IMG/VR virus record: IMGVR_UViG_3300036846_000555
Span: 58,350 to 122,349 of that record
Strand: one strand, 5' to 3'
Source: a virus
DNA: 64,000 bases
In this document: piece after piece, positions 2,174 through 58,720 of the stretch
How the letters are laid out: each line of letters begins with the position of its first letter
Numbering within the stretch: position 1 is the first letter of the stretch
Made by a program: the position numbers and the translations under genes
The notes under the pieces: model-generated
What the model saw: only the letters and a program-made list of their open reading frames with translations
Databases searched by the model: none
Told to the model about the DNA's origin: nothing

Positions 2174-2174
2174 A

Positions 2175-3680: not shown

Positions 3681-3682
3681 GC

Positions 3683-5952: not shown

Positions 5953-6033
5953 CACCCGTCGTGTATCCTGCGAGGCGCGAGGCACGCGAACGACCCTCAC
6001 TCCTCGGTCGGGATGACTCGCTCGCGCGCTCGC

Positions 6034-6070
6034 AGAAACGGCCGCCCCGCAGAGGCGGCCGTTTCTTGTT
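6034..6070. terminator. Bidirectional intrinsic terminator between convergent operons
   Basis: AGAAACGGCCGCC-7nt-GGCGGCCGTTTCT 13-bp inverted repeat followed by T-rich tail. Confidence 0.75.
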
Positions 6071-6107
6071 CCCGGGCTCCCAGGTAGGGAGAGGGGCCCG
6101 GAAGGGC

Positions 6108-43651: not shown

Positions 43652-43833
43652 TGGACGCGAACGCATACGCCGACAAGATCGAACGCAGCTACGACGACCC
43701 GGGCGAGCTGAAAGCCATCCGGGCGCAGATCGAAGCCGACCCCGAGCTGGCCGCGGACGACAAGTGGCGGCTGAGCACCCGAGTCGGAACCCACCTGCTC
43801 GGCGCCCAGCCCAACCCGCCAGGCACGCCCTGA
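43651..43833 (+). CDS. Small hypothetical protein (60 aa)
   Basis: SD GAGGAGGTGA; TAATG coupling. Confidence 0.65.
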   Translation: MDANAYADKIERSYDDPGELKAIRAQIEADPELAADDKWRLSTRVGTHLLGAQPNPPGTP

Positions 43834-43925
43834 GCGCCCCACACGGGCCGCTGGAGGCCCTCCGAGCCGCTGCCTGAACCCCCGGGTCAAGTCGGAATCC
43901 CATCCCGTCAGCGGCCGCGCGTACA

Positions 43926-44558
43926 GTGCCAGACGTGAGCTTGAACGGGCGCCTGACCGCCAGCGAGCTGTCGCCGATCGCGGGCGGCGTGCTCGCCCAC
44001 GACGCCGCCGCCGCGTGGAACGCCATGAACGTCGAATGCCGACGCAACGGCGTCGAGCTGCGCCCCAACGGATCGAAGTCCAGCTACCGCACCTACGCCC
44101 AGCAGCAGGAGCTGTGGAACCTGTACGTGTCCGGACGCGGCAGCCTCGCCGCGCACCCCGGCACGTCGAACCACGGCTGGGGTCTGGCCGTCGACCTCGC
44201 CACGCACGAGATGCGCGCAATGCTCGACCGCGTCGGCGACAAGTACGGCTGGAGCAAGCGCACGTCAGACGCCCAGTCGGAGTGGTGGCACATCGCCTGG
44301 CGCACCGGCTCATGGCGCGGACCCGACCCCGGACCGTATGGTCCCAGCACACCACCCCCCACACCCCTACCAGAAGGAGCCGCGATGGCGGATCTCGTCG
44401 CCGTCCTCAAAGACAACAAGGCCATCGAACTGTTCGTGATGGACAAGAACGGCACCGTCTGGCACGCCTGGCAGACCGCCCCAAACGGCGGCTGGGCGGG
44501 CGCCCAAGCGGGCAAACGCAACGCCGCCTGGTACTCGCTGGGCGCGCCGGGCAAATGA
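43926..44558 (+). CDS. Endolysin 1: M15 (VanY-like) Zn peptidase + C-terminal lectin-blade module
   Basis: SYRTYAQQ...AAHPGTSNHGWGLAVD...EWWHI; Pro linker; 57-aa module. Confidence 0.88.
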   Translation: MPDVSLNGRLTASELSPIAGGVLAHDAAAAWNAMNVECRRNGVELRPNGSKSSYRTYAQQQELWNLYVSGRGSLAAHPGTSNHGWGLAVDLATHEMRAMLDRVGDKYGWSKRTSDAQSEWWHIAWRTGSWRGPDPGPYGPSTPPPTPLPEGAAMADLVAVLKDNKAIELFVMDKNGTVWHAWQTAPNGGWAGAQAGKRNAAWYSLGAPGK

Positions 44559-44932
44559 ACCTCGGCCAGATCGCCAGCGACAAGCCGGTCGTGACGATCC
44601 TGACGCTCGTCGCCGCGACCGTCGCGATCGTCGTCGGCGGGATCGTCACCATCACCAATCCGCAGTCGCTCAGCTTCCACCAGTACGTGCAGGACATCGC
44701 GTTCATGGCCGGAGCGCTCGGGCTCGGCTCCGGGATCGGCCGCGGCATCGACAGCTACGGCGGCCGCGTCACCGCCACGCAGCGGACCATGATGGATCAG
44801 CAGATCGCCGCCATGCAGGGCACACAGCAGCCGCCGCCGCCGCCCGGGCCGCCGCCCGCCGCCGATCTGGCGTCCGGACCACCCGGCATGCCGCCGCCAC
44901 CACCCGAGCCGCCGCCCGCCCGTCACGCCTGA
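44555..44932 (+). CDS. Putative holin (2 TM, Pro-rich tail)
   Basis: ATGA coupling to endolysin; two hydrophobic helices. Confidence 0.7.
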   Translation: MNLGQIASDKPVVTILTLVAATVAIVVGGIVTITNPQSLSFHQYVQDIAFMAGALGLGSGIGRGIDSYGGRVTATQRTMMDQQIAAMQGTQQPPPPPGPPPAADLASGPPGMPPPPPEPPPARHA

Positions 44933-44948
44933 CCACTAAGGAGAGCCG

Positions 44949-45185
44949 ATGGCCATCACCGTCACCACCAGCGCCACCAAGATCTACGCCGCGTCCACCG
45001 CCGAACACTTCGTGACCGTCCGCAACAACGGCGCCGCCGTCATCTCGATGGGCAAGTCTTCAGCCGTCACCGTTGCGTCCGGCATGAGTCTCGCATCCGG
45101 CGCCAGCGAGAGCGTCGATCTCGCGCCCGGCGAAGAGCTGTACGCCATCGTCCCGTCCGGCACCGCCACCGTCGACGTCCTCTGA
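44949..45185 (+). CDS. Small beta-rich protein, possibly virion decoration
   Basis: SD AAGGAG; Thr/Val/Ser-rich. Confidence 0.6.
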   Translation: MAITVTTSATKIYAASTAEHFVTVRNNGAAVISMGKSSAVTVASGMSLASGASESVDLAPGEELYAIVPSGTATVDVL

Positions 45186-45373
45186 TGGACGAACCGAAAG
45201 ACCAGCTCGCCGTCATGCGCGCCCAGCTTGACCAGATGATCGCGCTCATGCCCGAGATCGCGCACACCGCGCGAGCCTGGCACGAAGCGTTCATGGCCGA
45301 AGGGTTCGCCGACAGCCAGGCGCTCTACCTCACTGCCGCGGAGATCCTCCAGAACCCCGGCTCCGCGCCCTGA
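45185..45373 (+). CDS. Hypothetical protein
   Basis: TGATG coupling; GFADSQALYL. Confidence 0.6.
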   Translation: MDEPKDQLAVMRAQLDQMIALMPEIAHTARAWHEAFMAEGFADSQALYLTAAEILQNPGSAP

Positions 45374-45609
45374 TGACCGACATCGCCGCCCTCTCCGACG
45401 TCGAGTTCGACCGCCACGTCCAGGAGAAAGCGCTGGCGCACCTGGAGGCCTGCCTGGAAGCCGAAGACGACTGGGAGGCCGTCAGCCCCGCATACGCCCC
45501 GTTTGACGGCTGTTACACCTGCATCGTCCGCGAAGTGCTGATGGTCGCCTGGGACGAGATGTGGGCGCGCGCCCAAGCCGACGCCCGCCGGGCACTCGAC
45601 ACGAGCTAG
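45373..45609 (+). CDS. Hypothetical protein
   Basis: TGATG coupling; CYTC. Confidence 0.6.
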   Translation: MTDIAALSDVEFDRHVQEKALAHLEACLEAEDDWEAVSPAYAPFDGCYTCIVREVLMVAWDEMWARAQADARRALDTS

Positions 45610-45677
45610 CCGAAAAGCTCGCAACGTGCGGTAAGACGCCGCGGCGCGGTCTCGACCGATGGCGTACGATGCGAGCG

Positions 45678-45968
45678 ATGCCGCTGTCGAAGATGACCGG
45701 GAAGTCCGAGGAGCCCGGCGACCGGCTCGGCCGGATCGCCGCCGCCATGCTCAAAGCAGGCGAGGACCATGTCGAGTCCCACGTGGACGACAAGGTGATC
45801 ATCATGCTCGACTCCGGCGAGACCGGCATGCTCGCCCACGGCGGCTACGACCGCGAGCAGGACGGCGCCGACGCGTTCGTGAACCTGCTCGCGCACCTCG
45901 ACGCGCTCGCGCAGGCCAACGGCATGCAGCTCAGCTTCATCCCGATGGCCGAACCGGGACAAGGCTGA
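45678..45968 (+). CDS. Hypothetical protein
   Basis: Codon bias; start uncertain (45669 or 45678). Confidence 0.55.
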   Translation: MPLSKMTGKSEEPGDRLGRIAAAMLKAGEDHVESHVDDKVIIMLDSGETGMLAHGGYDREQDGADAFVNLLAHLDALAQANGMQLSFIPMAEPGQG

Positions 45969-45970
45969 CC

Positions 45971-46282
45971 GTGCCGAACTGTCCACCGCACTACCTCTGC
46001 ACGTTCACGCCCCAGCAACGCTACGTCGTGACCCGCCACCTCGGCGAATGGTGGCACGGCACCGGCGGGCTCGTCGTCGCCATCATCGCCGTCGTCGCCA
46101 TCGCCGTCGTGCTCACCACCGCCGTCGTGTTCGCCTACAACTCCCGCGAAGCCGGACGCATCCGCGGCGAGCGCGAAGCCGAACGCCAGCACAAGCTCGC
46201 CATCGAAGAACAGCGCACCATGCAGGCCGACATGGCCAAAGGCAACCCCGACCTGCTGCGGGCCATCCGCGCGAACCAGTGA
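45971..46282 (+). CDS. Membrane protein (1 TM + coiled coil)
   Basis: LVVAIIAVVAIAVVLTTAVVFAY. Confidence 0.6.
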   Translation: MPNCPPHYLCTFTPQQRYVVTRHLGEWWHGTGGLVVAIIAVVAIAVVLTTAVVFAYNSREAGRIRGEREAERQHKLAIEEQRTMQADMAKGNPDLLRAIRANQ

Positions 46283-46476
46283 CCGACGGCGAGCCCGACG
46301 TGACCGAATGGGAAGCGTTCCTGGAGGAGGCGCTCCGGATCCCCGAGCCCGCCGCCGACAAGGACCGCAGGCTCCGTCAGCTTCAACGCGACATGCTCAC
46401 CGCCAACCTCCCACCCGGCGCCGACGCGCTGCTCGCCCGCACCGAATCCGTGATCGCCGCCCTGGAGAACCGATGA
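46279..46476 (+). CDS. Hypothetical protein
   Basis: GTGA coupling. Confidence 0.5.
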   Translation: MTDGEPDVTEWEAFLEEALRIPEPAADKDRRLRQLQRDMLTANLPPGADALLARTESVIAALENR

Positions 46477-46955
46477 CCGCCTGCCCTGACTGCGGCGTCG
46501 ACGACGCGCTCGGCCGCCACGACCCCGCCTGCGCGCACGCCATCGCCATCGACCTGCCGCGGCTCGCCGAAGGCGAAGACCCGATCGCGCCGCACGAGGA
46601 CGATGACCCGCTCGCCGAATCCGGCTACGACGGCCCACCCTCCGACACCGTCTCACCCAACCACCCCGCCTACCAGATCCGCGACGAGCCCGGCGACATC
46701 CAACGCGCACCCGACGAGGACTACGTCGCGCGCCAGCGACCCGACGGCCAGTGGGAGCCCGTACCGCGCAGCCAGAACCCCGACGCCGGGCTGTACACCG
46801 GCCTGTGGATCTCCTACCGCGGCGAACGCGACGACGGCAAGTTCGACGCCGTCGTTTTCGCATCCGAACTCGACGCGCTCCGCCACGCCGTCCGCGAGGG
46901 CTACAACGTCCATCCGCTGGAACTCGGCCGCAGCCTCCGCGAGCAAGTCCAGTGA
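46473..46955 (+). CDS. Hypothetical protein
   Basis: ATGA coupling; CPDC. Confidence 0.55.
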   Translation: MTACPDCGVDDALGRHDPACAHAIAIDLPRLAEGEDPIAPHEDDDPLAESGYDGPPSDTVSPNHPAYQIRDEPGDIQRAPDEDYVARQRPDGQWEPVPRSQNPDAGLYTGLWISYRGERDDGKFDAVVFASELDALRHAVREGYNVHPLELGRSLREQVQ

Positions 46956-47025
46956 CCCTCTACAAGAACAGCATCGCCTGGCGGTTCGTCATCTTCGACG
47001 ACGGCGCCTGGGCGTGGATCCGGCA

Positions 47026-47655
47026 ATGGCGATGAGCGGCCACGAACACACCCGCGCGCACATCCACATCCGCATCCACCCCGGCCTGCTCCGCGCCACC
47101 AAGGCCCGCGGCGAAGAACACGACCTCGGCGTCCCGCAAATGATCGAATGGGCGCTCGCCAACCTCCTCGACATCCCGCCCTACGTCGAAGGCGCCGGAC
47201 AGCCGCTGTCGCTGTGTCCCGATTGTGAGCACGCGCTCATCGTCAACAACAACTGCCCCAACTGCGACTGGCACGCCATCGGCAAACGCGACACCCTCGC
47301 CTACAACAAAGGCACCCGCCGCCGGTTCTACGACCTCACCGACAAGCACGGACCCGTCCCCGACCACGCGCCCGACCTCGACCACTGCTGGACCTGGAAC
47401 GGCCCGACCGACCACCAAGACCGCCCCATCTACATGGTCACCACCCGCTTCCGGCTAGCCCGCACCCTCGCCTGGGAGGACACGCACGGGCCGCTTCCCA
47501 ACGCCCGCCAGCTCATGACGATGTGCGGCACCCCGACCTGCATCCGCCCCAGCCACCACACGCCCGTCCGCGTCACCTGGCACGACTACAAACCGGTGAC
47601 GGCCAGCGCGCGCGCGCTGAACCCCGACCCACAACACCCTAACCACACGCAATGA
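47026..47655 (+). CDS. RHH-like + Zn ribbon + degenerate HNH_3-like domain
   Basis: HIHIRIHPGLL...; CPDC..CPNC; CWTWNG...ARTLAW...CGTPTCIRPSH. Confidence 0.6.
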   Translation: MAMSGHEHTRAHIHIRIHPGLLRATKARGEEHDLGVPQMIEWALANLLDIPPYVEGAGQPLSLCPDCEHALIVNNNCPNCDWHAIGKRDTLAYNKGTRRRFYDLTDKHGPVPDHAPDLDHCWTWNGPTDHQDRPIYMVTTRFRLARTLAWEDTHGPLPNARQLMTMCGTPTCIRPSHHTPVRVTWHDYKPVTASARALNPDPQHPNHTQ

Positions 47656-47849
47656 GCGAACCCCTCCTCATAGCACTCATCTGGGGCTTAGCAGTCATCC
47701 TCGCGCTCATTCTCGCACGCCTCATCCGACACCGCCGACACCGCCGCCCCGCCTGCATCACCGAATGGCAAGCCCGACAGAACGCCGCACCGCTCACCAA
47801 CGCGTTCATCGCCCGCCACACCCGCACCGACTACCCCCGCAAACCATGA
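47652..47849 (+). CDS. Small membrane protein
   Basis: N-terminal TM helix. Confidence 0.55.
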   Translation: MSEPLLIALIWGLAVILALILARLIRHRRHRRPACITEWQARQNAAPLTNAFIARHTRTDYPRKP

Positions 47850-48097
47850 CGCCCGCCAGCCGCAAGAAACCCGCCAAGACCGAACCCGCCAAACCCGCCG
47901 CACCACGCGGCCACAGCACCGACAACTATCCTGGCGCGCCGACCGACCCGACCGACCGGCTCGCGTACATCCGCCGCCGCAACGCGCTCATCCAAGGCGT
48001 CGACCCCGACACCTACATGACCCTCATCCAAGACCAAGACCGCCGACGCCAGACCATCGCCCAACGAGACCCGACCGGAGCCCGCAACCACACATGA
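47846..48097 (+). CDS. Hypothetical protein
   Basis: ATGA coupling. Confidence 0.5.
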   Translation: MTPASRKKPAKTEPAKPAAPRGHSTDNYPGAPTDPTDRLAYIRRRNALIQGVDPDTYMTLIQDQDRRRQTIAQRDPTGARNHT

Positions 48098-48351
48098 CCC
48101 AACCGTTCAAAGTCATCTGCACCATCAGCATCGCGTTCGACACCCCGAGCTACCAATCCGCAGGCGAGAAGCTCGACCAGATCGACCGCAAGCTCACCAA
48201 GATCCTCGACGGCCACGGCCACCACGAGATCACCGGCTTCCAGACCCGCCCCTGCAAAGCCATCCAGTTCGAACGCCGCCTCGACCACGAAGACCAGGCG
48301 ATGATGGCCCAACCCGAGATGCTGCCCGGACCCGAGCCCAGCTACCGATGA
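48094..48351 (+). CDS. Hypothetical protein
   Basis: ATGA coupling. Confidence 0.55.
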   Translation: MTQPFKVICTISIAFDTPSYQSAGEKLDQIDRKLTKILDGHGHHEITGFQTRPCKAIQFERRLDHEDQAMMAQPEMLPGPEPSYR

Positions 48352-48812
48352 GCCACCCCAACGACCCGATCCACCAGCTCATCGGCAACAACAACGCGCA
48401 GGACTGGGCCCGAGCGTTCATCGACATGCTCACCGAGCAGGAAGGCGCAGGCGCGCAGCTCCCCGTAGACGAAGGCACGATGATCGGCTGGTTCGCGAAC
48501 GCGATCATGACCGGCTACGACGCAGGCGCCGAATACGAACGCAAACGCGACCTCCTCGACAAGATCCGCGAGATCGTCTTCACCGCCGCAGGCGCCGCCA
48601 CCGGGCCGCTGCTGGAAGACAACCCCGACTACACCTTCCCGTCCCGCCGCGTCAAGGACGCCGTCGACCACGCGCTCATGGAGTTCGGCATCCCCGTCGA
48701 CCCGCCCGAGCCCGAGCCCGCACCATCAACGCTCGCCCGCGCCATCCACGACGAACAAGCACCACCCGACCCCAAGCACTCCGCCTACCACAACCCGCCG
48801 CCCGCAGCGTGA
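48348..48812 (+). CDS. Conserved phage hypothetical protein
   Basis: NAQDWARAF...DEGTMIGWFANAIMTGYD. Confidence 0.7.
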   Translation: MSHPNDPIHQLIGNNNAQDWARAFIDMLTEQEGAGAQLPVDEGTMIGWFANAIMTGYDAGAEYERKRDLLDKIREIVFTAAGAATGPLLEDNPDYTFPSRRVKDAVDHALMEFGIPVDPPEPEPAPSTLARAIHDEQAPPDPKHSAYHNPPPAA

Positions 48813-48937
48813 CCATGCTGCTCGCCGCAGGCTTCGCGACCATCACCGCCATGAGTCTCACCATCCGCCACCACCACCGCCGGATCCGCCGCACGCTTGA
48901 CCGCGTCGACCGTCGCCTTGACCGGATCCGCGCATGA
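48809..48937 (+). CDS. Small membrane peptide (42 aa)
   Basis: GTGA coupling; hydrophobic N-half, basic tail. Confidence 0.45.
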   Translation: MTMLLAAGFATITAMSLTIRHHHRRIRRTLDRVDRRLDRIRA

Positions 48938-48939
48938 CC

Positions 48940-49140
48940 ACTGTGGGGCGCAGCCCGGCAGCGGGCGGCGTCAACGAAGACGCCGCCCGCCACGATGCCC
49001 GGCCGTGTGCCAGCCGGGCAGCCCCAAGTATCGCCCCGCCAGCAGGGCGATGGCCAGATGGGAACTGGCTAGGCGCGGGTAGCGGGAAGGACCGACGCGG
49101 GGCTGGCATACCGTCGCCGGTGAACCGCCCCGCGCTCCCA
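48940..49140 (+). ncRNA. Candidate structured RNA element
   Basis: Five or six perfect stems in 200 nt, see findings. Confidence 0.35.
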
Positions 49141-49145
49141 GGCCG

Positions 49146-49319
49146 ATGACCAGACCAGAGCCACCGCTTCCGCCTCAGTGGGGCCTGCCGAAGCCACCCG
49201 CTCAGGAGCGCGACGAGGCCATCACCGAGCTAGCCCGAGCAGCGACAGAGGTGCTCCGCGGGGAGCTGCCCGAAGCGATCGCCGAAGCCCTCCGCGCCTG
49301 GACGCGCGCACACTCATGA
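49146..49319 (+). CDS. Hypothetical protein (57 aa)
   Basis: Own translation; coupled to next gene. Confidence 0.45.
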   Translation: MTRPEPPLPPQWGLPKPPAQERDEAITELARAATEVLRGELPEAIAEALRAWTRAHS

Positions 49320-49645
49320 CCACCACCACGCACCAGCACAAGTGGACCACCACCGTCCACCTCGACGGCTGCCACTACTACACCACCACCGCCACCTGCC
49401 GCTGCGGCGCCGTCCTGTCCATGACCAGCGAACGCAACCCGCAAGAGGACCCGTACTCACTCATCTGGATGGAACCCAAGGTCGAACGCGTCACCCGCGA
49501 CGAACGCGGCCGGTACTGCACGCCGCGGTGGGTCGAACGCCCGTGTGAACGTTGCCAGGCGTTACAGGCAGGCGCCCAACCCAAGTTCGATCTTGTCATC
49601 ACCGACAACCGCGGCGAGATCCTCCGCGAAGAGCACCATGGCTGA
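49316..49645 (+). CDS. Hypothetical Zn-binding protein
   Basis: HQHKW...CRC...CERC. Confidence 0.6.
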   Translation: MTTTTHQHKWTTTVHLDGCHYYTTTATCRCGAVLSMTSERNPQEDPYSLIWMEPKVERVTRDERGRYCTPRWVERPCERCQALQAGAQPKFDLVITDNRGEILREEHHG

Positions 49646-49898
49646 GACCTGCAGCGCCTGCCACTGCCGACTCGTGTGGGCGGTCACCCCGACCGGCGCC
49701 CGCGCCCCGATCGAACGCGACCCCGACCCGGACGGGAACGTGCTGATCCTCGACGTCTCACACCTCGGCCTGATGGCCGTCACGCTCAGCAAGGAAGGCC
49801 TGCAGCTCGCGCGTGATCACGGGCTCCCGCTCCGCCTGAACCACTTCGCGAGCTGCGAGTTCAAGGAGCAGTTCCGCCGCCAGAAAGCTCCGGCGTGA
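49638..49898 (+). CDS. Small Zn-binding protein
   Basis: CSAC...W...P..DGNV...HFASC. Confidence 0.65.
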   Translation: MAETCSACHCRLVWAVTPTGARAPIERDPDPDGNVLILDVSHLGLMAVTLSKEGLQLARDHGLPLRLNHFASCEFKEQFRRQKAPA

Positions 49899-49981
49899 AC
49901 TGGCAGGGCTGGGCGTTCATCGCGCTGCTCGTCGTGCTGCTCGGGCTCGGCTACTGGTACTGGTACACCAACCGACCGTAA
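49895..49981 (+). CDS. Tiny membrane peptide (28 aa)
   Basis: MNWQGWAFIALLVVLLGLGYWYWYTNRP; GTGA coupling. Confidence 0.5.
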   Translation: MNWQGWAFIALLVVLLGLGYWYWYTNRP

Positions 49982-50001
49982 CGCGCATCATGTGGTACCC
50001 T
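49980..50001 (+). promoter_or_regulatory. Variant dyad promoter
   Basis: AACGCGCATCATGTGG-TACCCT, followed by 150-nt structured leader. Confidence 0.45.
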
Positions 50002-50158
50002 GAGCGCGACCAGACGCGGCGGCCGTCAGGTGCGCGGAACGAGGCAACCGAGGGACGCTCCGGTTGAACCCTCCCAGGACTCCGGAGCGCGGACGCCGGT
50101 CCGCGACCCCCGCCGATCCCGCGGCCGCCGCTCTGGCCTAAATCGACCGAGGAGACCG

Positions 50159-50389
50159 ATGGCCTATCTGAAGATCACCCGCTACGGCTGCCGACCGCTT
50201 GGCTACGGCCCGCTCGCGCTCGGCGGCGAACCCGTGCTCGCATGGCGGCACATCGCCACCGGCATCCGAGTGTTCACCTGCCCCGAAATGCCCGGGTTCG
50301 GCTGGCACATCGAGGGCGACGACTCCGACGCGTTCTCCAGCTCGCTGCGCGCCGTCGCCGCCCGCCTGGAACGGAGGATCCGAGCATGA
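50159..50389 (+). CDS. Hypothetical protein
   Basis: CGACCGAGGAG SD. Confidence 0.65.
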   Translation: MAYLKITRYGCRPLGYGPLALGGEPVLAWRHIATGIRVFTCPEMPGFGWHIEGDDSDAFSSSLRAVAARLERRIRA

Positions 50390-50604
50390 GCGAACTGAGC
50401 CGCGACAAGCTGTACCTGTGGGCGCTGCTGCGCATCGCTCGCGGCGACCCGACCGGCGACCCGGAGCTGGACGCTGCAGGCTTCAACAAGCCGGTCAGCG
50501 ACCCGTCCGCGCTCGCTGAGGCCGCGCTGCGCGGCGAGGAGGAGATCGTCACCGAGAGCTGCCCGGTGGGCCTTGACCGCGCGATGATCATCTTCTCGCC
50601 ATGA
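50386..50604 (+). CDS. Hypothetical protein
   Basis: ATGA coupling. Confidence 0.55.
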   Translation: MSELSRDKLYLWALLRIARGDPTGDPELDAAGFNKPVSDPSALAEAALRGEEEIVTESCPVGLDRAMIIFSP

Positions 50605-50912
50605 CCGACGCTGACCGCGCCGACCCCGACGAGCACATCGACCAGGATGACCCGCGCTACGACGGCTTCCGGATCCGGGAGATCTGGGCCATGACCGCCA
50701 TCGCCCCCGACAATCAGGAGGCGCTGCTGTGGGTCGAACCGCACGACGCTAGGCCGTTTCACCTGTCGCCCGGGCCCGCGTTCGCATCCGACGCGCGACG
50801 CCTGAAGCATCTCCGCGAGTACGCGAAGGCGCAGGCGGGTCTCTACGGGATTGAGGTCCGGATCCGTCACTTCGTGCCCGCCGCCGATGACGGCGAGGTG
50901 ATCACACCGTGA
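50601..50912 (+). CDS. Hypothetical protein
   Basis: ATGA coupling. Confidence 0.6.
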   Translation: MTDADRADPDEHIDQDDPRYDGFRIREIWAMTAIAPDNQEALLWVEPHDARPFHLSPGPAFASDARRLKHLREYAKAQAGLYGIEVRIRHFVPAADDGEVITP

Positions 50913-51229
50913 GCACGCCCGACCACTACGACCCGACCGCGGCCGAGCACGACCCGCCGCTCGCGAACGGCTGGTTCGCGATGAGGATCCAGTGCGACCG
51001 GCACCTGACCGCCGGGGATGTCAGCGACGCCCTGTACGCGCAGTTCGAAGCCCGGCCCGGGTTCACCGCATCGGTCGTGAAGGTCCGCGAGCGGACGCAC
51101 GACCGGCTCAACGAGGCCCGGGTGCTGCGCGAGGCGCTGGAACGCATCGTCCGCGAGGATCACGCGGGTGGAGCGGGCTGGATGGCGGAGATCGCGCAGG
51201 CGGCGCTCGACGCGGCCGATGAGCCATGA
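50909..51229 (+). CDS. Hypothetical protein
   Basis: GTGA coupling. Confidence 0.55.
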   Translation: MSTPDHYDPTAAEHDPPLANGWFAMRIQCDRHLTAGDVSDALYAQFEARPGFTASVVKVRERTHDRLNEARVLREALERIVREDHAGGAGWMAEIAQAALDAADEP

Positions 51230-51390
51230 CCGGCGAGGAGCTGCTGGAACGCATCGACCGGACGGTTCGAATGATCGTCGAGCTGGACCAGCCCGACCTG
51301 TCTGAGGATGACCGCGAGACGCTGATCGGGCACTTGACCGGCGCCGTGTTCGTCACGGTGTCGAAGCCTTCCGCGACCGACGAGGCTTGA
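51226..51390 (+). CDS. Hypothetical protein (54 aa)
   Basis: Own translation; ATGA coupling. Confidence 0.5.
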   Translation: MTGEELLERIDRTVRMIVELDQPDLSEDDRETLIGHLTGAVFVTVSKPSATDEA

Positions 51391-51504
51391 CGCCGGGTCT
51401 ACGATTCGGCGCGAGAACGCTGCACGCCGGATCGCCGGACGTTGAATGCGCCGGGCGAGGATGGAAGCGGCGGGATCCCATCGCGAATACAGTCCTCTCG
51501 CGTT

Positions 51505-51568
51505 AGCACGCGATGTGTGCTAGACTGTGGGTGGAGGCTGAGAGCCTCCGATTCCCGACCGAGAGGAG
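51505..51568 (+). promoter_or_regulatory. Dyad promoter-hairpin-SD cassette
   Basis: AGCACGCGATGTGTGC-TAGACT; GGAGGCT/AGCCTCC stem; CCCGACCGAGAGGAG. Confidence 0.75.
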
Positions 51569-51573
51569 CAAGG

Positions 51574-51792
51574 GTGCCGAGCACAACCGAGCGGCTTGCT
51601 ATCGAGCTGCGCGCCGAACGCGCTCGCTTGATCCGCAGCCAGCACGCGCTGGCGGCGGAGATCAACCGCTACTACCCCCGCGTGAGCGCTGGGTCTCGTC
51701 CGCTGGGCGAGGCGCAGGCCTGCGCCAGAGCGGAGGCCAACACGCTGAGGCTGCGTGAGATCAAGGCCGACCTGGAGCGGCTCGGAGGATGA
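51574..51792 (+). CDS. Hypothetical protein
   Basis: GTG after cassette. Confidence 0.6.
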   Translation: MPSTTERLAIELRAERARLIRSQHALAAEINRYYPRVSAGSRPLGEAQACARAEANTLRLREIKADLERLGG

Positions 51793-52025
51793 GCTACGAG
51801 CGGATCACGTACCGGCCCGTCGGCGCGACCCGGTCACGGACAGTCATCCTCCGCGACGTGCGCGAGCTGGACGCGGTGCCTGCGGTCACCGGCATCGAGG
51901 TGAACCGCCACGGCGAGACCGTCGCTCCGCGCGGCGTTGACGAGCGGCGGCACATCATCGCCGTGGAGCTGATCTCCCGGCGCCGGGAGCTGCACTGGGA
52001 TCTGCACTACGGGGTGCTGGCATGA
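51789..52025 (+). CDS. Hypothetical protein
   Basis: ATGA coupling. Confidence 0.6.
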   Translation: MSYERITYRPVGATRSRTVILRDVRELDAVPAVTGIEVNRHGETVAPRGVDERRHIIAVELISRRRELHWDLHYGVLA

Positions 52026-52180
52026 CCGTGACCCCGAGGATGATCGAGGCGGCCGCGCGCGTCATCGCGCACAGCGAGGAGTTCAACGCCGAGCTGTGGC
52101 GCAAGTACGCCGCGGTGGCCGAGCGCGCCGTGAGGGCGGCGCTGGAGGCTGAACGTAAACCCGACCGAGGAGCAGCATGA
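52022..52180 (+). CDS. Hypothetical protein (52 aa)
   Basis: Own translation; ATGA coupling. Confidence 0.5.
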   Translation: MTVTPRMIEAAARVIAHSEEFNAELWRKYAAVAERAVRAALEAERKPDRGAA

Positions 52181-52182
52181 CT

Positions 52183-52230
52183 AAACGCACGACGTGTGCT
52201 AAACTGTAGGTAGGACCCCGACCGAGGAGG
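52183..52230 (+). promoter_or_regulatory. Dyad promoter plus SD
   Basis: AAACGCACGACGTGTGC-TAAACT; CCGACCGAGGAGG. Confidence 0.75.
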
Positions 52231-52237
52231 AAGTGAA

Positions 52238-52381
52238 ATGGACAAGCCCGTCTACTACGACGAACGCCGCCCCGCATCGCGCGGCAAGTGGGTCGTGATC
52301 GAGCGATCCGGGTGCATCGTCGAGCACATCGGCTACGCCACCGAAGCAGAGGCCCGCGAGGCCGCCCGGGGGAGCGCATGA
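52238..52381 (+). CDS. Hypothetical protein (47 aa)
   Basis: ATG after cassette SD. Confidence 0.55.
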   Translation: MDKPVYYDERRPASRGKWVVIERSGCIVEHIGYATEAEAREAARGSA

Positions 52382-52689
52382 CCAAGCCGCCGGTAGACAC
52401 GTTCTGGATCGGTGACGAGCCGATCAAGTACACGGTCCGCCGGACCGAGGGCACCATTGAGCGCGGCGCGGGCGTGACGATCGTCCGCTGCGAGGGCAGC
52501 GACGAGGACTGCCAGCAGGCGCTGCTGGAGATCCGGCATGACGGCGACACGCTGCGGCTCGTGCAGGTCGACGGTGACCTGGACGCGCGGAAGGTGATCG
52601 CGGCTGATCAGCACTCGGCGTCGTTCGGCGGCCGGACTCGTCCGCCGCTGAACATCTGGCGCCGCGTCTGGAAGGTGGCGACCGGATGA
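52378..52689 (+). CDS. Hypothetical protein
   Basis: ATGA coupling. Confidence 0.55.
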   Translation: MTKPPVDTFWIGDEPIKYTVRRTEGTIERGAGVTIVRCEGSDEDCQQALLEIRHDGDTLRLVQVDGDLDARKVIAADQHSASFGGRTRPPLNIWRRVWKVATG

Positions 52690-52922
52690 ACCCGCGCCTG
52701 CAGCGAGCCATCGACAGCGAGACGGCCGATCTCGCGCGCATCACGGCGAACATCACCCGGGCGTGGGAGAACGGCCTGATCTCGGAGCATGACCGCGATG
52801 AGCGGATCGCCCGCCGGGAGCATTGGACGGAGGGCCGGATCGCGCACCTGAAGGGTGAGAGGGCGCCGCGGATGCGTGAGCGCCAGCCGCTTGACGACGA
52901 GAACGCCGGGCGGGTCGGATGA
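52686..52922 (+). CDS. Hypothetical protein
   Basis: ATGA coupling. Confidence 0.5.
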   Translation: MNPRLQRAIDSETADLARITANITRAWENGLISEHDRDERIARREHWTEGRIAHLKGERAPRMRERQPLDDENAGRVG

Positions 52923-53185
52923 CCGAGCGCTTCAGTTCGGCGCAGCGCGATGCGCTGACCTGGCTGAGGGGCGACTGGCCGGACACGCCCGGCTTCAACG
53001 GCGCGACTCGCAGCACGCTGGTGGCGCTGGAGCGCCGAGGCCTGGTGCGCTGGGTGCTGTGGGACAGCTCAGAGACCGGCCCGCGCCCGTACTGGGTGGA
53101 GCCGCTGGACCCGTCGCAGTGGACGGATCACTACGGGCCGGTGCTCACCCAAGAAGGCGAACGCGTAGCGCACGACGTGTGCTAA
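52919..53185 (+). CDS. Winged-helix-like hypothetical protein
   Basis: SSAQRDAL...TLVALERRGLV...LTQEG; stop inside promoter motif. Confidence 0.55.
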   Translation: MTERFSSAQRDALTWLRGDWPDTPGFNGATRSTLVALERRGLVRWVLWDSSETGPRPYWVEPLDPSQWTDHYGPVLTQEGERVAHDVC

Positions 53186-53219
53186 ACTGTAGGTGTAACC
53201 GAGAAACCGACCGAGGAGG
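53167..53219 (+). promoter_or_regulatory. Dyad promoter plus SD
   Basis: AGCGCACGACGTGTGC-TAAACT; CCGACCGAGGAGG. Confidence 0.75.
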
Positions 53220-53223
53220 ATGG

Positions 53224-53523
53224 ATGAGCTTCTTCTACGACGAAGAGCTGCCCGCCGGATACCAGGACGCCGACATCGAGATGGCTGAGATGGAGGCCGA
53301 GGGCCGCCGGATCGCGGCTCTGCACCGCCGGGGCGTCTGCACGCACGGCGCCGGGCTGGGCCACAAGAGCCCGAGCATCTACGACGCGGCAGCGATCGCG
53401 GGGATGCTGGAGCGCGGCCGGTTCGGTAACCGCGGCGGGTTCGCGGGCGAGCAGTCCGACATCGGCGAGGGCCGCGTGCTCTGCACCGACTGCGGCATCG
53501 TCCAGGACGACCGCTTCGCATGA
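53224..53523 (+). CDS. Hypothetical protein with Zn motif
   Basis: After cassette; CTH...CTDCG. Confidence 0.65.
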   Translation: MSFFYDEELPAGYQDADIEMAEMEAEGRRIAALHRRGVCTHGAGLGHKSPSIYDAAAIAGMLERGRFGNRGGFAGEQSDIGEGRVLCTDCGIVQDDRFA

Positions 53524-53771
53524 GCGGCGCTCCCTACGACATGCTCGCCTACTTCGGCGTTGACGACGACTCCCTGAACATCGTCGAGGTGGCAGGCGAC
53601 GACCGCGAGTGGATCGCGGTCACGCCGTTCGCGCCCGACGCGACGCTGCTCGTCGTGCTCTACCAGCGCGGAGTCCGTCGCGTCGCTGTCCGTTCCGCTG
53701 ACCGGGTGGCCGAGTTCGACCTGAAGGCGGTCATCCTCCGCGACGGCAGCCCGATCGGTGTTGACCGATGA
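53520..53771 (+). CDS. Hypothetical protein
   Basis: ATGA coupling. Confidence 0.55.
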   Translation: MSGAPYDMLAYFGVDDDSLNIVEVAGDDREWIAVTPFAPDATLLVVLYQRGVRRVAVRSADRVAEFDLKAVILRDGSPIGVDR

Positions 53772-53953
53772 CCGTCGAGGCCTACTCAGAGGAGCGCTAC
53801 GAGCATCATCACGCCGAGTGGATCGAAGCGCGCAGCCGCCGTGACCACAGGCAGGCGGCGCGGCATCTGTACGCGCTCCGCGCTCACCTGCACCAACTGG
53901 GGTGGCTGGACCCGAGGTACGACGTGCCCGGCTACGGCGTGCGCCCGCGATGA
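53768..53953 (+). CDS. Hypothetical protein
   Basis: ATGA coupling. Confidence 0.5.
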   Translation: MTVEAYSEERYEHHHAEWIEARSRRDHRQAARHLYALRAHLHQLGWLDPRYDVPGYGVRPR

Positions 53954-54237
53954 CCCTCGATGACATGACGTTCACCGCGTGGGAGCTGATCGGCTTTGAC
54001 GGCACCACCGAGGTGATCGACCGGCTATGGCAGCGCAACCCGAGCTACGCCGAGCCCGACTACGAGGCCGAGGCCGCGACCGTCCGGATCCGCGGCGGCC
54101 GCGCGCTGTACGAGGCGGTCGGCAACGACGGCGGCGATCTCGTCCGGCTGTCGCGGCTGGCCATCGACGCTGACGGCCTGCGCCCGGTCGTCCGCTACGT
54201 CGACCCGGACACCGAGCTGGAAGTGATCGTTGACTAG
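53950..54237 (+). CDS. Hypothetical protein
   Basis: ATGA coupling. Confidence 0.6.
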   Translation: MTLDDMTFTAWELIGFDGTTEVIDRLWQRNPSYAEPDYEAEAATVRIRGGRALYEAVGNDGGDLVRLSRLAIDADGLRPVVRYVDPDTELEVIVD

Positions 54238-54424
54238 GCGGCAGCTAGAGGCGATTGAGTGGCTGGAGCGTGTTGGGAAGGCGACACCGAAGGTGGTGCG
54301 CGCCAGCGGCTTCGCTCAGCGCACGTTTGACTCGCTGGCCGACGATGGCTTCATCCGGCGCGAGTACATGCCGCGCACGGTCGGCGGCCCGTTCCCCGTC
54401 TATCGCCCGCTTGTGAACCGCTGA
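54230..54424 (+). CDS. Small winged-helix-like protein
   Basis: LTRRQLEAIEWL...TFDSLADDGFI. Confidence 0.5.
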   Translation: MTRRQLEAIEWLERVGKATPKVVRASGFAQRTFDSLADDGFIRREYMPRTVGGPFPVYRPLVNR

Positions 54425-54555
54425 GAAGAGTCACAGGATCGCCTCTGATTTGTGACCGGCGCTTGTCAATGGGGTATGTGTGTGCTGTTAGGAATTGACG
54501 AGTAGGGCGCGTCGGGGATCGCCTCAGCACATATCCTGTTCTAAGTGAGGCCCTG

Positions 54556-54762
54556 ATGAGTTGGACTGAGATCGCTATCGAAGCGGCGGAGATGATCGCT
54601 AGGCAGCGCGGCTGCGACCTGGCGTCCTTCAGCGTCGACGACGTCGACTGCTACGAGGCCGAGGACGGCACCGAGGTCGTGATGGTCAAGGCGTCCTGCC
54701 AGGTCACCCGCGCGGACGACGACGACGAGATCCCCGGGTTCCGACTAGCCGCCGCCGAGTAG
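54556..54762 (+). CDS. Hypothetical acidic protein
   Basis: SD GTGAGG; follows AT-richer gap. Confidence 0.6.
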   Translation: MSWTEIAIEAAEMIARQRGCDLASFSVDDVDCYEAEDGTEVVMVKASCQVTRADDDDEIPGFRLAAAE

Positions 54763-54771
54763 CCTGTCGGC

Positions 54772-54957
54772 ATGCCGCCGGGCGTGTCGCTGTCGAAGCT
54801 GGGCCTGGTCGCGCCCGATGGCCTAGAGTGCCCCGCGGGCGGTCAGCATCATGTGCTGGAGCCCGAACTCTTGATTGCGGCCGCGTCGGGTGGTGGCAGC
54901 CCCCTCTGCCAGAAGTGTGGGCAGCCGGTCGCGTTGGCGTCGGCGCGCGAGCTTTGA
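54772..54957 (+). CDS. Small Zn-ribbon protein
   Basis: ECP...H...CQKCG. Confidence 0.5.
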   Translation: MPPGVSLSKLGLVAPDGLECPAGGQHHVLEPELLIAAASGGGSPLCQKCGQPVALASAREL

Positions 54958-55150
54958 GACGGGCTCGCGCGCCGACAATGTCGTACCTGCGCTGCTAGCT
55001 CACGACGTATTCCTCGCAAAGAGCACGAAGCTAGTCACACGCGCGCCGGGTGACGGGGTATCGTGGCTGCGTGATCGTTCACGCTGGCCAGCAGAAGCGC
55101 GGTAACGCCCGGGAAGCCGAGGAGCGCGACGTGGTGAACCGGGGTCCAGC

Positions 55151-55471
55151 GTGACGATCCGGACCGGGACGGACGCGGTCGGGCATCACAGCCACACGAT
55201 GAGACGCGCGCGCCTGCCGTCGGCGCCGGTCCGTCCGACGGTCACGCAGCAGGGCATCAAGCGCCTGCCGCGTGAGCGCCAGGCAGCCGATCTCCCGCTC
55301 ACCGAACGCCAGCAGGCGGTGTACGACGCGATGGGCGACGGACTGGTCTCAGCGACCGCGCTGGCGCGCGAGATGAGCCAGCCGATCGGTGGCGTCCAGT
55401 CGATGATGTACCGCTTGGCGGACCGCGGCCTGGTCGAGCGGATCCCGCGCAAGGGCTGGCGCCGGACGTGA
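55151..55471 (+). CDS. Winged-helix (MarR/IclR-like) DNA-binding protein; start uncertain
   Basis: LTERQQAVYDAM...SATALAREM...VQSMMYRLADRGLVER. Confidence 0.7.
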   Translation: MTIRTGTDAVGHHSHTMRRARLPSAPVRPTVTQQGIKRLPRERQAADLPLTERQQAVYDAMGDGLVSATALAREMSQPIGGVQSMMYRLADRGLVERIPRKGWRRT

Positions 55472-56121
55472 TCGTCCCGGCGTTCATCTTCGACTCCGCG
55501 GAGAAGTGGCTGCCGTCGCCGGTTGAGACGATCATCCTCCGCGGCGCGAAGATCGGCGGCGAGCAGATCACCGACCTGGATGAGCTGACCGCTGACGTGT
55601 CCCCGCGCGCGCAGATCGACTTCCCGGCCGACATGCGGCCCGTCAACGATCAGCCGACCGGCTACCACCGCGTCGTGACCGGCGGCTCGCTGTGGTGGTT
55701 CCAATACTGGCTGTTCTTCCTCTACAACCCGAAGGTGTACGCCGGGTTCGGCGCGCATGAGGGCGACTGGGAGATGGTGCAGCTCGGCTGCCGCGACCCG
55801 GAGGGCAACGTGCCGATCCTGATGACGTTCAGCCAGCACGGGTCCGGCGAGAAGAAGGAGTTCTGGAGCACCGAGCTGGTCGGCGGGCGTCCCGCCGTCT
55901 ACGTCGCAAGAGACTCGCACGCGAACTACCCGAGCCCGCACCGCGACGTGACGGACGTCGCGGACGGCAAGATGGGCGCCGTCTCGATCCGCTGGCAGGA
56001 GTTCGGGGACTGGGCGGCCTGGCCGGGCAAGTGGGGCAACAGCACCAACAGCCCGGGCCCGCTGACAACCCGGCGCGCATGGCAGGCGCCGCACGCGTAC
56101 CACAGCCAGGCGCGAGGATGA
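55468..56121 (+). CDS. Vps62/NPP1-like domain protein
   Basis: EKWLPSPVE...QYWLFFLYN...HEGDWE...SQHGSG...PAVYVARDSHANY. Confidence 0.65.
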   Translation: MIVPAFIFDSAEKWLPSPVETIILRGAKIGGEQITDLDELTADVSPRAQIDFPADMRPVNDQPTGYHRVVTGGSLWWFQYWLFFLYNPKVYAGFGAHEGDWEMVQLGCRDPEGNVPILMTFSQHGSGEKKEFWSTELVGGRPAVYVARDSHANYPSPHRDVTDVADGKMGAVSIRWQEFGDWAAWPGKWGNSTNSPGPLTTRRAWQAPHAYHSQARG

Positions 56122-56306
56122 AGCGCCCGCGTGGCATCTGCCCGGTCTGCGGACGCAGCGTGACGGTCCGCAGCGACGGCGAGCTGCGCGACCATCAGGG
56201 ACGCAGCGTGCTGGTCGAGACGGCTTCCGGGCGCAGAGCCTACGCGTGGTGTCCCGGGTCCGGGACCAACGTGATTGACGCCGACATCCATCCGCGAGCA
56301 GGATGA
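56118..56306 (+). CDS. Small Zn-ribbon protein
   Basis: CPVCGR...H...CPGSG. Confidence 0.6.
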   Translation: MKRPRGICPVCGRSVTVRSDGELRDHQGRSVLVETASGRRAYAWCPGSGTNVIDADIHPRAG

Positions 56307-56319
56307 CCGAGGAGGACTG

Positions 56320-56952
56320 ATGGAACTGAACATGATCGAGATCCCCGAGGAGCAGGCCCGCAGCGCGTACGAGGAGTACGCGGCCGCGGTCAAGGTCAAC
56401 CGAGACGAGGAGGACCGCGCGATCGCTGAGGGCTACAAGGCGCTGGCGGAGGGCAAGCGGCTGATTCATCTCGGGCAGACGCTGCAGATCGGCGGCACCA
56501 GCATCGTCGAGGTCCGCTCGCGCTGGGACGGCCGCGACGTCCAGGTGGCCGTCCCGAACCTGGCGTGCTGCCGCGCGGACGCGAAGATCGCGTGGACGTC
56601 AGGCGTGGACAGCGATGGCGGCTGCGTGATCACCGCCGACCGGCAGGCCAACCAACTGCACGCCGCCAACCGCAAGGACCGGTTCGTGATCGCCGACGGT
56701 ACGTTCGAACGCCCGGAGAGGACGCTGCTGCGGCCGCTGCGCGCCATCGTCCCGAACGTCCCGCCCAGATTGCGGCCCAAGCGTGGCCTGCAGCTCTACA
56801 CGCTGCTGTGGGAGGCGGAGTGGGCGCCCGATCCGAGCGCGCCCGAGGATCCGGCGCTGCTGCGGCGGCTCGGCGGGGAGCTGTACATCGTGCTCGGCAC
56901 CTGGGATCTGACCGAGCTGGAGCGCACGGTCCTGTCGGGCCGGGCGAACTGA
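56320..56952 (+). CDS. Hypothetical protein
   Basis: GACCGAGGAGG SD; P.VPP.LRP...LWE...DPALL...WDLT. Confidence 0.7.
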   Translation: MELNMIEIPEEQARSAYEEYAAAVKVNRDEEDRAIAEGYKALAEGKRLIHLGQTLQIGGTSIVEVRSRWDGRDVQVAVPNLACCRADAKIAWTSGVDSDGGCVITADRQANQLHAANRKDRFVIADGTFERPERTLLRPLRAIVPNVPPRLRPKRGLQLYTLLWEAEWAPDPSAPEDPALLRRLGGELYIVLGTWDLTELERTVLSGRAN

Positions 56953-56979
56953 AGTCAAACCCACCAACGAGGAGGACGC

Positions 56980-57183
56980 ATGTCGACCGAGACACCACCC
57001 GCACCGCCGCCTGAGCCTGGGCCGGGGGAGACTCCGGCACCGCCGCCCGAGCCCGCGCCGGGCACGACGCCACCGCCGCCACCCGAGCCAGGCGTGACGC
57101 CGGAGTCAGACCCGAACGTCGACACGCCGACGCCGGAGACCGACCCGAACGTCGACGCCGAGACCGGCGGCGAGGTCGAGTAG
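56980..57183 (+). CDS. Pro/Glu/Thr-rich repeat peptide
   Basis: SD GAGGAGG; 3x PPPPEP-like and 2x DPNVD repeats. Confidence 0.55.
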   Translation: MSTETPPAPPPEPGPGETPAPPPEPAPGTTPPPPPEPGVTPESDPNVDTPTPETDPNVDAETGGEVE

Positions 57184-57195
57184 CAGGGCCGCAGC

Positions 57196-57840
57196 ATGAA
57201 CCTGAGTCCACGGGGGGCTGAGCTGATCGCGGAGTTCGAAGGTTTCAGCTCGGCCCCGTATCGAGACCCGGTCGGCGTCTGGACCCAAGGGTTTGGCAGC
57301 ACGAAGGGCGTCGGGCCGAACTCGCCGCCCGTGACTCGCCAGCAGGCGCTTGACCGGATGATGCGCGAGGTCGACCAGACCTACGGCGCGGCTGTGAACG
57401 CGCTGAACCTGCCGCTGAACCAGAACCAGTTCGACGCGTTGACGAGCTTCGTCTACAACGTCGGGCCGGGCGGCATCGCGCCGAGCACCAATGTCGGACG
57501 CGCACTGCGAGCGGGCAACTATCAGGCGGCCGCGGACGGTCTGCTGGCGTGGGATCACGCGGGCAGTCAGCGTCTGCCGGGACTGACGCGCCGCCGCCAG
57601 GCGGAGCGCGCGCTGTTCATGAGCAAGGCGCCGCCGCCGCCGACACCTCTACCGAAGGAAACGACGATGGCTGATCTGGTGGCTGTGCTGAAGGCGAACA
57701 AGGCGATCGAGCTGTTCGTCATGGACAAGAACGGGACGGTCTGGCACACGTGGCAGACCGGGGAGGGCGGAGGCTGGGCGGGCGCGCAGGCAGGCAAGCG
57801 CAACGCGGCGTGGTACAGCCTGGGCGCGCCCGGGAAGTGA
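57196..57840 (+). CDS. Endolysin 2: GH24 lysozyme + C-terminal lectin-blade module
   Basis: LIAEFEG...YRDPVGVWTQGFGST...LNQNQFDALTSFVYNVG...GLTRRRQAERALF; 57-aa module shared with endolysin 1. Confidence 0.92.
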   Translation: MNLSPRGAELIAEFEGFSSAPYRDPVGVWTQGFGSTKGVGPNSPPVTRQQALDRMMREVDQTYGAAVNALNLPLNQNQFDALTSFVYNVGPGGIAPSTNVGRALRAGNYQAAADGLLAWDHAGSQRLPGLTRRRQAERALFMSKAPPPPTPLPKETTMADLVAVLKANKAIELFVMDKNGTVWHTWQTGEGGGWAGAQAGKRNAAWYSLGAPGK

Positions 57841-58181
57841 CGCACGCGATCATCCGGTTCGCGACGCCGCCGCTGACGCTGAAGGACTGGGAGGCGTTCT
57901 GTGCCGAGCATAAGCTCAAGCACTCCAGCGCGCTGGCGGGCGGGAACGTGTGGACGCGCGGCGGCCGGACGGGGATCGAGGCGGCGTTCGGGCAGCCGAC
58001 CCGCGGGGTGCGTGACCCGCCGCCGCCGGATGAGGCGACCGACGTCGTGTTCATGACGCCGTTCGGCGGGGAGAAGGCCCGGGAGCTGGCGCGGCTCGCG
58101 GCGGAGTTCTGGACGCGGTATGGCGGCGCGATGCAGGCGGAGGAGAGCATCCGGCTGATGGTGGTGGGGCGGGAGCCGTGA
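57837..58181 (+). CDS. Hypothetical protein
   Basis: GTGA coupling. Confidence 0.55.
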   Translation: MTHAIIRFATPPLTLKDWEAFCAEHKLKHSSALAGGNVWTRGGRTGIEAAFGQPTRGVRDPPPPDEATDVVFMTPFGGEKARELARLAAEFWTRYGGAMQAEESIRLMVVGREP

Positions 58182-58378
58182 CCGGCTCGGAGATCACGCA
58201 GGAGAACGTCGACAATCTCCGCGACTGGCTGAAGCGTCAGCACGCGCCGGGCGCGGACGCGTCTGACGAGGTGCTGCGCGAGGCGTTGGAGGGCGCCGTG
58301 AAGTGGATCGGCGGCACCCGCCGGTCGTTCACGATCGTCGCGGCGAACTATCTGCGGGACGGCACCTTTCACGGGTAG
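58178..58378 (+). CDS. Hypothetical protein
   Basis: GTGA coupling. Confidence 0.5.
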   Translation: MTGSEITQENVDNLRDWLKRQHAPGADASDEVLREALEGAVKWIGGTRRSFTIVAANYLRDGTFHG

Positions 58379-58399
58379 CGCGTACGCTGTCCCCCGGCG

Positions 58400-58720
58400 A
58401 TGAGCGACGAGATGCTCGACTACCTCCGGACGCTCCGCACCAAGTACCTCAAGTTCTGGCCCCTCACCAACCTGTTGGAGGCAATGATGGCGGACATCGA
58501 GCAGATCAAGGCTGACGTGAAGGCGCTGCAGGACGCGCAGGCTGCCGCGGCGGACGAGCTGGAGGACTTGACGAACATCGTCGCGGAGCTGCAAGCCGGG
58601 ACGGTCACGCAGGCGCAGCTCGACAACCTGCACGAGAGCCTGCAGTCGGTGACGTCGCAGCTCACCGCGGCGACGCAGGCCGCGGATCAGGCCGAGCCGC
58701 CGCACGCGACGACGGAGTAG
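58400..58720 (+). CDS. Coiled-coil protein (alternative start 58484 with SD GGAGG)
   Basis: Heptad Ala/Gln/Leu pattern. Confidence 0.6.
   Translation: MSDEMLDYLRTLRTKYLKFWPLTNLLEAMMADIEQIKADVKALQDAQAAAADELEDLTNIVAELQAGTVTQAQLDNLHESLQSVTSQLTAATQAADQAEPPHATTE

Follow-up and report, generated by a model that had tools for sequence, protein, structure and literature searches.

In-frame internal starts that give rise to free binding domains, and multimers that combine full-length chains with such domains at ratios of up to 1:5, are common in endolysins (PMC9430671, PMC4777826, PMC7098653). The two-polypeptide endolysins, such as CTP1L, CD27L, Lys170, LysIME-EF1, and LysP7951, as well as Ms6 LysA, are built of a catalytic domain, a linker, and a C-terminal binding domain, with a ribosome-binding site (RBS) and a start codon at the domain boundary (PMC4777826, PMC4110038, PMC7098653, PMC9430671). 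Oligomerization is also found in the lectins RSL and BambL, which have two blades per chain and become a six-bladed propeller as a trimer, and in engineered propeller fragments (tachylectin-2, WRAP, and Pizza); in all of these, the propeller is completed by several chains and the sugar sites lie at subunit interfaces. In PlyC, one catalytic chain, PlyCA, sits on a ring of eight identical small PlyCB subunits that bind the wall. Here, we describe two lysin genes in the final 64 kb of the 122,349-bp virus record IMGVR_UViG_3300036846_000555 (positions 58,350 to 122,349; this whole stretch is called the window, and coordinates refer to it). The two encoded enzymes, an M15 peptidase and a GH24 lysozyme, end in the same 57-residue module, which, judged by its sequence and modeled fold, is one blade of a lectin propeller of the PLL type, and an internal translation start appears to be conserved at its junction with the linker. 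The features of the two genes are as follows.

43926..44558, + strand: M15/VanY-type peptidoglycan peptidase lysin gene, 210 amino acids (aa) from GTG 43926 (Pfam PF02557)
44340..44384, + strand: Pro-rich linker of the M15 lysin, with rare A-ending codons (codon view)
44372..44379, + strand: Shine-Dalgarno (SD)-like AGAAGGAG, 5 nucleotides (nt) upstream of the internal ATG (-8.9 kcal/mol to the anti-SD)
44385..44558, + strand: single PLL-type propeller blade, 57 aa, from internal ATG 44385; free product predicted at ~6 kDa (sequence and fold matches)
57196..57840, + strand: GH24 phage-lysozyme lysin gene, 214 aa (Pfam PF00959; PHROG 7)
57196..57626, + strand: GH24 catalytic cassette; a GH25 domain stands in its place in a 125-kb relative, G001 (DNA comparison)
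57625..57666, + strand: Pro-rich linker of the GH24 lysin; homology to the GH25 lysin of the relative resumes at 57627 (DNA comparison)
57654..57659, + strand: SD-like GAAGGA, 7 nt upstream of the internal ATG (-6.5 kcal/mol to the anti-SD)
57667..57840, + strand: second single-blade copy, 57 aa, from internal ATG 57667 (BLASTP and codon comparison)

A preliminary description of this DNA had proposed that the two lysins share a C-terminal module, retained from an old duplication under strong selection on the protein, and both parts of the proposal hold. The BLASTP alignment of the M15 and GH24 lysins covers the last 57 residues only, 52 of which are identical (expectation value, E, 4e-26), and the common stretch begins about 10 residues before the module, in the P-P-P-T-P-L-P portion of the linker. 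At the nucleotide level, 36 of 174 positions differ; the 23 synonymous codon differences counted earlier were recovered, together with five nonsynonymous ones. By the Nei–Gojobori method, the synonymous divergence (dS) of the pair is 1.55 and hence saturated, the nonsynonymous divergence (dN) is 0.08, and their ratio (omega) is 0.05, as befits strong purifying selection. The G/C skew at third codon positions is regional, amounting to ~-0.28 at 43926–45609, around the M15 lysin, and to +0.15 to +0.38 at 57196–58720, around the GH24 lysin. Each blade copy shows the third-position skew of its own surroundings, being C3-rich near the M15 lysin and G3-rich near the GH24 lysin, which suggests long residence in place. 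Given the saturated dS and the local skew of each copy, the duplication is old, and recent gene conversion between the copies is rejected. In the whole record there are exactly two copies of the blade, on different genes and with one blade per lysin, and a multi-blade partner protein encoded by the phage is rejected for this reason.

When the 57 residues were searched with phmmer against 1.84 billion representative proteins, 1,726 matches were obtained; nearly all of the best 150 have five to eight matched stretches, mostly seven, and these relatives are therefore seven-bladed propellers. The matches in the PDB are the Photorhabdus proteins PLL3, PLL2, PLL5, PLL, and PHL (E 6.5e-21 to 1.5e-16), and in the alignments displayed (PLL3 and PLL2) the module matches blade by blade. 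Its neighbors in the ESM Atlas bear PF26607 or DUF346, and a Pfam scan of the module with a library devoid of PF26607 gave FG-GAP_3 only, below threshold. The signature of the blade is present, D-G-R-L-E-V-F being followed by W-H-x-W-Q and then by G-W and S-L-G. An AlphaFold2 model of the module, made from 16 lysin-borne modules, reaches a predicted local distance difference test score (pLDDT) of 83.9 and has four strands (residues 3–8, 14–19, 25–30, and 50–53); the full-length AlphaFold2 model is poor (pLDDT 58, nine sequences), and its blade part alone is usable. With the module model as the query, the top 19 Foldseek matches are all PLL-family chains, with root-mean-square deviations of 1.6–2.3 Å over 48–53 columns. 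Taking sequence and model together, the module is exactly one blade (W-motif, strands A-B-C-D) of a PLL-type seven-bladed lectin propeller. It had first been likened to fucose-lectin and PLL propellers alike, and of these the PLL family (Beta-prop_PLL) is supported by the sequence, the model, and Foldseek, whereas kinship with RSL/AAL is rejected: SapL1, FleA, and AofleA rank below every PLL chain in Foldseek, all with E > 1, and no AAL or RSL chain was returned when the PDB was searched with the module sequence.

The lysin-borne blades share their motif and four-strand A-B-C-D fold with the PLL lectins (PLL, PLL2, PLL3, PLL5, and PHL of Photorhabdus; PF26607/DUF346), but they differ in number, each chain having a single blade and not a tandem of seven, in their fusion to phage peptidoglycan hydrolases, and in an extra insertion in the C–D loop. 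This insertion, of 8–11 residues (module residues ~38–48) with a conserved basic G-K-R/K-N stretch, is present in most lysin-borne blades and missing from canonical PLL blades and from three of the lysin loci (L009, L050, and L052); it may serve as a contact either with the wall polymer or between subunits. In the PLL family, sugar sites are located between adjacent blades and make use of the strand-B Glu, the Trp and Gln of W-H-x-W-Q, and the following G-W (PMC6943638, PMC5584973). Invariant among the modules are the strand-B Glu, the His of W-H-x-W-Q, and the Trp at the start of strand D; at least 90% have the strand-C Gln and the Trp of G-W, and in place of the first Trp of W-H-x-W-Q there is often Phe or Tyr. 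The sugar pocket residues E, W, H, Q, and W are, at the level of sequence, conserved in the modules, and binding of fucose or an O-methylated sugar is putative. An entirely different reading would be that the lone blade forms no propeller but acts as a small independent β-sheet domain for wall binding or dimerization, with a ligand site unlike that of PLL. Against this, one four-stranded sheet by itself lacks a hydrophobic core. The C–D loop insertion, absent as it is from canonical blades, agrees with such a domain, as does the prediction by AlphaFold2 that the module folds alone at pLDDT 84, and blade-like units are reported to occur in non-propeller folds (PMC3797127); but the residues that line the inter-blade pocket of PHL and PLL, namely the strand-B Glu, W-H-x-W-Q, and the following G-W, are invariant or nearly so (PMC5584973), and we regard an independent domain of this kind as decidedly improbable.

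As the preliminary description had also noted, both modules begin with an ATG (44385 and 57667) that follows an SD-like sequence, AGAAGGAG (44372–44379) or GAAGGA (57654–57659), within the Pro-rich linker; in both linkers, these SD-like sites sit in rare A-ending codons. When 466 internal in-frame ATG and GTG codons are ranked by anti-SD pairing, the site at 44385 falls in the top 4.5% and that at 57667 in the top 12%, so that on their own the two sites in the window are no more than moderately unusual, and the weight of evidence comes from conservation in relatives. For the latter, a site was defined as a GGAG, GAGG, or AGGA core 4–12 nt before an ATG, GTG, or TTG at codons -12 to -6 from the strand-B motif, and the test set comprised 27 single-blade lysin open reading frames (ORFs) from metagenomes, forming 21 clusters at 80% module identity. 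An SD core with a start codon was found at the junction in 21 of the 27 ORFs and 15 of the 21 clusters, against a background of three such sites in the other 3,746 codons of these ORFs (0.08% per codon). The core is encoded under varied residues (E-G, K-E, K-G, Q-G, T-E-A, E-D, E-E, and G-G) and in differing codon registers, and the start codon is constantly placed just before strand A; of the 770 blades from multi-blade relatives, 13.8% have a Met in that stretch. In addition, in all 20 loci compared, the 45 nt around the site are less stably folded than control windows from elsewhere in the ORF, with a fold energy of -8.0 kcal/mol at the site and -13.1 kcal/mol in the other windows (Wilcoxon P 2e-6). 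A profile search for short proteins brought up at least 20 gene calls of 53–62 aa (within P0160–P0186, from other metagenomes) that each comprise a single blade and start exactly at this codon, some of them on contigs of 24–124 kb and one in the same 90% cluster as a 243-aa CHAP-like fusion; the contexts of these calls are not in IMG/VR, and none lies inside the retrieved loci save the partial P0159. Thus, the conservation of an internal start at the linker/blade junction across many homologs is supported.

The same single blade is found at the C-terminal end of lysins in other viral and metagenome contigs, where its partner domains are, by Pfam, M15, GH24, GH25, and Amidase_2, and further a sub-threshold CHAP-like domain and two domains without assignment. 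Four or more partner types are Pfam-assigned and a further three are weak or unassigned; conceivably, the blade could be plugged onto any catalytic domain. Two or more blades were seen in none of the blade-bearing lysins found, and nowhere do seven tandem blades close a propeller within one lysin chain; the relatives that do have several blades are ordinary proteins of bacteria, including those in metagenome-assembled genomes of Dormibacterota, Mycobacterium, and other Actinomycetes. A tblastn search with the module against 50,697 isolated-phage records gave no match.

How the catalytic domains are exchanged can be seen in G001, a relative of 125,432 bp with terminal repeats that holds an orthologous lysin pair. 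The M15 lysin of the window and its orthologue (P0001/L004) are 91% identical, and dS between the phage and G001 is ~0.15 for each of the two blades. The second lysin of G001 has a GH25 domain, not GH24 (window 57196–57626 versus L003:2392–2985), and the flanks, linker, and blade are 84–95% identical. DNA homology breaks off in the upstream flank and is back at 57627, the first Pro codons of the linker; the catalytic domains have therefore been swapped as cassettes before a constant linker and blade. The two loci of G001 lie at 1558–7755 (L003) and 112817–118999 (L004), with the physical genome end between the two lysin genes, which are thus at opposite ends of the packaged DNA and ~14 kb apart across the terminus. 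Another phage fragment (IMGVR_UViG_3300036841_000048, 19.7 kb) also encodes two blade-bearing lysins, GH25 (L047) and M15 (L049), which share a distinct blade subtype, 62% identical, and of which the GH25 gene only has an SD and ATG.

Several observations count against reading the junction site as a source of free blades. The naive binomial P of ~1e-29 for the junction sites is uncorrected for shared descent, and SD-like words as well as low mRNA structure arise in part from the linker itself, which is purine-rich and lower in GC. The short gene calls may represent stand-alone blade genes, or else choices forced on gene callers by spurious antisense ORFs. Moreover, 6 of the 21 clusters (L009, L010, L013, L015, L048, and L049) have no clear SD and start, and the free blade would therefore be frequent rather than universal or obligatory. 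The same six clusters are compatible with a reading in which only full-length proteins are made, as homo-oligomers or monomers, the SD and start being a relic of a mobile linker and blade cassette (a former gene), a by-product of the linker codons, or a translational pause site. Linker and blade do move together by recombination, as the breakpoint at 57627 attests, and ~15% of portal genes also score for internal starts in a published screen (PMC9430671). A neutral relic would be expected to decay, however, whereas the core and start persist as linker residues and codon register change, in modules down to 38–60% identity; the low per-codon background in the same ORFs and the lowered mRNA structure at every one of the 20 loci are likewise at odds with it. 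We consider it unlikely that full-length chains are the sole products.

If free blades are indeed made, the working enzyme may be pictured as follows. Each lysin would consist of a catalytic domain, a Pro-rich linker, and one complete four-stranded PLL blade as the cell wall-binding unit, and the conserved RBS and start at the junction would most likely yield free 6-kDa blades from the same mRNA. Given that PLL pockets are formed between neighboring blades and that a lone sheet would have both faces exposed, several blades most likely assemble, packing side by side into a ring and thereby forming the binding pockets through which the assembled blades would bind glycan. One or a few chains in such a ring would be full-length and most blades free 6-kDa products. 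In the ring of small subunits that bears a catalytic chain, this arrangement would resemble PlyC; PlyCB, unlike the blade, is the product of a separate gene with an unrelated fold, and both catalytic activities of PlyC reside in one chain, which is not the case here. The number of blades would be about seven by analogy, with five to nine possible; engineered propeller fragments are known to form rings of six to nine blades (PMC6805158).

Assembly of a propeller from free and enzyme-linked blades is plausible, given the location of PLL sugar sites between neighboring blades (PMC6943638). As in the two-polypeptide endolysins, a multimer of full-length and short chains would be expected, but the binding domain of those enzymes is a complete fold that associates, whereas here it is a one-blade fragment that presumably becomes a functional fold only once assembled. 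Completion of the propeller by oligomerization, with sugar sites at subunit interfaces, is proposed in the same way as for RSL and BambL and the engineered fragments; in contrast to RSL and BambL, the blade is of the PLL and not the AAL/RSL type, there is a single blade per chain, and it is attached to enzymes. In the literature examined, a single blade per chain is found for engineered constructs only (PMC6805158). What tells against the assembly is that an isolated WD40 blade, the PkwA consensus, is an unfolded monomer in vitro, and oligomerization of a lone blade is therefore not guaranteed (PMC6805158). On balance, we judge the combination of a multi-chain blade ring with free blades from the internal start to be moderately probable.

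A more ambitious form of this model had been put forward in the preliminary description, according to which the M15 and GH24 lysins would contribute their blades, along with free ones, to one common wall-binding ring bearing a peptidase and a muramidase. In keeping with such a mixed ring, the two blades are 91% identical despite saturating synonymous divergence, four of the five residues that differ between them lie in loops and not in predicted strands, G001 keeps the blade pair although GH24 has been exchanged for GH25, and the second phage fragment has one blade subtype on a GH25 lysin with an internal start (L047) and on an M15 lysin without one (L049). All of these points, however, are equally expected if the duplication is lineage-specific and the two enzymes have a wall ligand in common; furthermore, the M15 and GH24 genes are 13 kb apart, and the identity between the L047 and L049 blades is just 62%. 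We therefore hold co-assembly of the two enzymes to be rather unlikely, and the picture of a multi-enzyme lysis particle, in which free and two-enzyme blades occupy one lectin ring and the wall-binding fold exists only when assembled, is correspondingly doubtful.

The assignment of the two catalytic domains is straightforward. The M15 lysin matches PF02557 at E 1.3e-12 (48 bits versus a gathering cut-off of 25), and its relatives begin at GTG 43935; against isolated phages, its M15 domain gave weak matches only, to Clavibacter phage lysins and one Synechococcus phage peptidase. The GH24 lysin matches Phage_lysozyme PF00959 at E 1.3e-34 (119.6 bits versus a gathering cut-off of 22.3) and PHROG 7 (endolysin) at E 7e-52. 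Each gene overlaps the next one downstream.

44555..44932, + strand: putative holin-like membrane protein (hydrophobicity); its ATG overlaps the M15 lysin stop (ATGA)
57837..58181, + strand: downstream gene with a GTGA start/stop overlap to the GH24 lysin; no PHROG match

The product of 44555..44932 has one stretch above Kyte–Doolittle 1.6 (19-residue windows starting at residues 8–18) and a second, weaker hydrophobic stretch recognized by eye, and it appears to be holin-like, although the gene has no PHROG match; since its start overlaps the M15 stop, the two probably form a lysis cassette. An antisense ORF of 322 aa (43396–44364, - strand) spans the M15 catalytic domain and ends 20 nt short of the internal ATG. 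Probably this is no real gene but a by-product of high GC content, and gene callers could be led by it to call the 57-aa blade alone. Directly upstream of the GH24 lysin, a 67-aa ORF at 56980–57183 consists almost entirely of Pro, Glu, Thr, and Gly repeats, and the flank at 57094–57173 is 90% conserved in the relative. The PHROG search on the neighbors of the GH24 lysin gave no match.

The virus record from which the window is taken has a CheckV completeness of 99%, and the guanine-plus-cytosine (GC) content of the phage DNA is 68.8%. The large terminase, the portal, and large head-associated proteins are encoded upstream of the lysin genes, and no tRNA genes were found in the 64-kb window. 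Identity of the large terminase to those of isolated phages does not exceed 29%, the best comparisons being SPO1-like, and the phage therefore belongs to an uncultured high-GC lineage.

While two-polypeptide multimeric endolysins are known, a single propeller blade as the proposed wall-binding unit appears to be new, and a literature search returned no paper on propeller-blade wall-binding domains in endolysins. In the literature examined, natural propellers are "almost always" made of one chain, and assemblies of single blades figure as engineered or hypothetical (PMC6805158, PMC9218822); the phage module is thus a candidate for a natural single-blade propeller. For engineering, a 57-residue self-assembling multivalent lectin tag of a kind that nature exchanges among catalytic domains would make a useful component. 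For phage biology, the finding adds a predicted wall-binding module, which is joined to four or more Pfam-assigned kinds of catalytic domain and was missing from the collection of isolated phages that was searched, and it would extend the principle of the two-polypeptide endolysin to high-GC soil phages, with a high subunit number predicted. Finally, the proposed ancestors of propellers are single blades that functioned at first as oligomers, and this ancestral state would become directly testable with a natural single-blade module that is widespread and strongly conserved.

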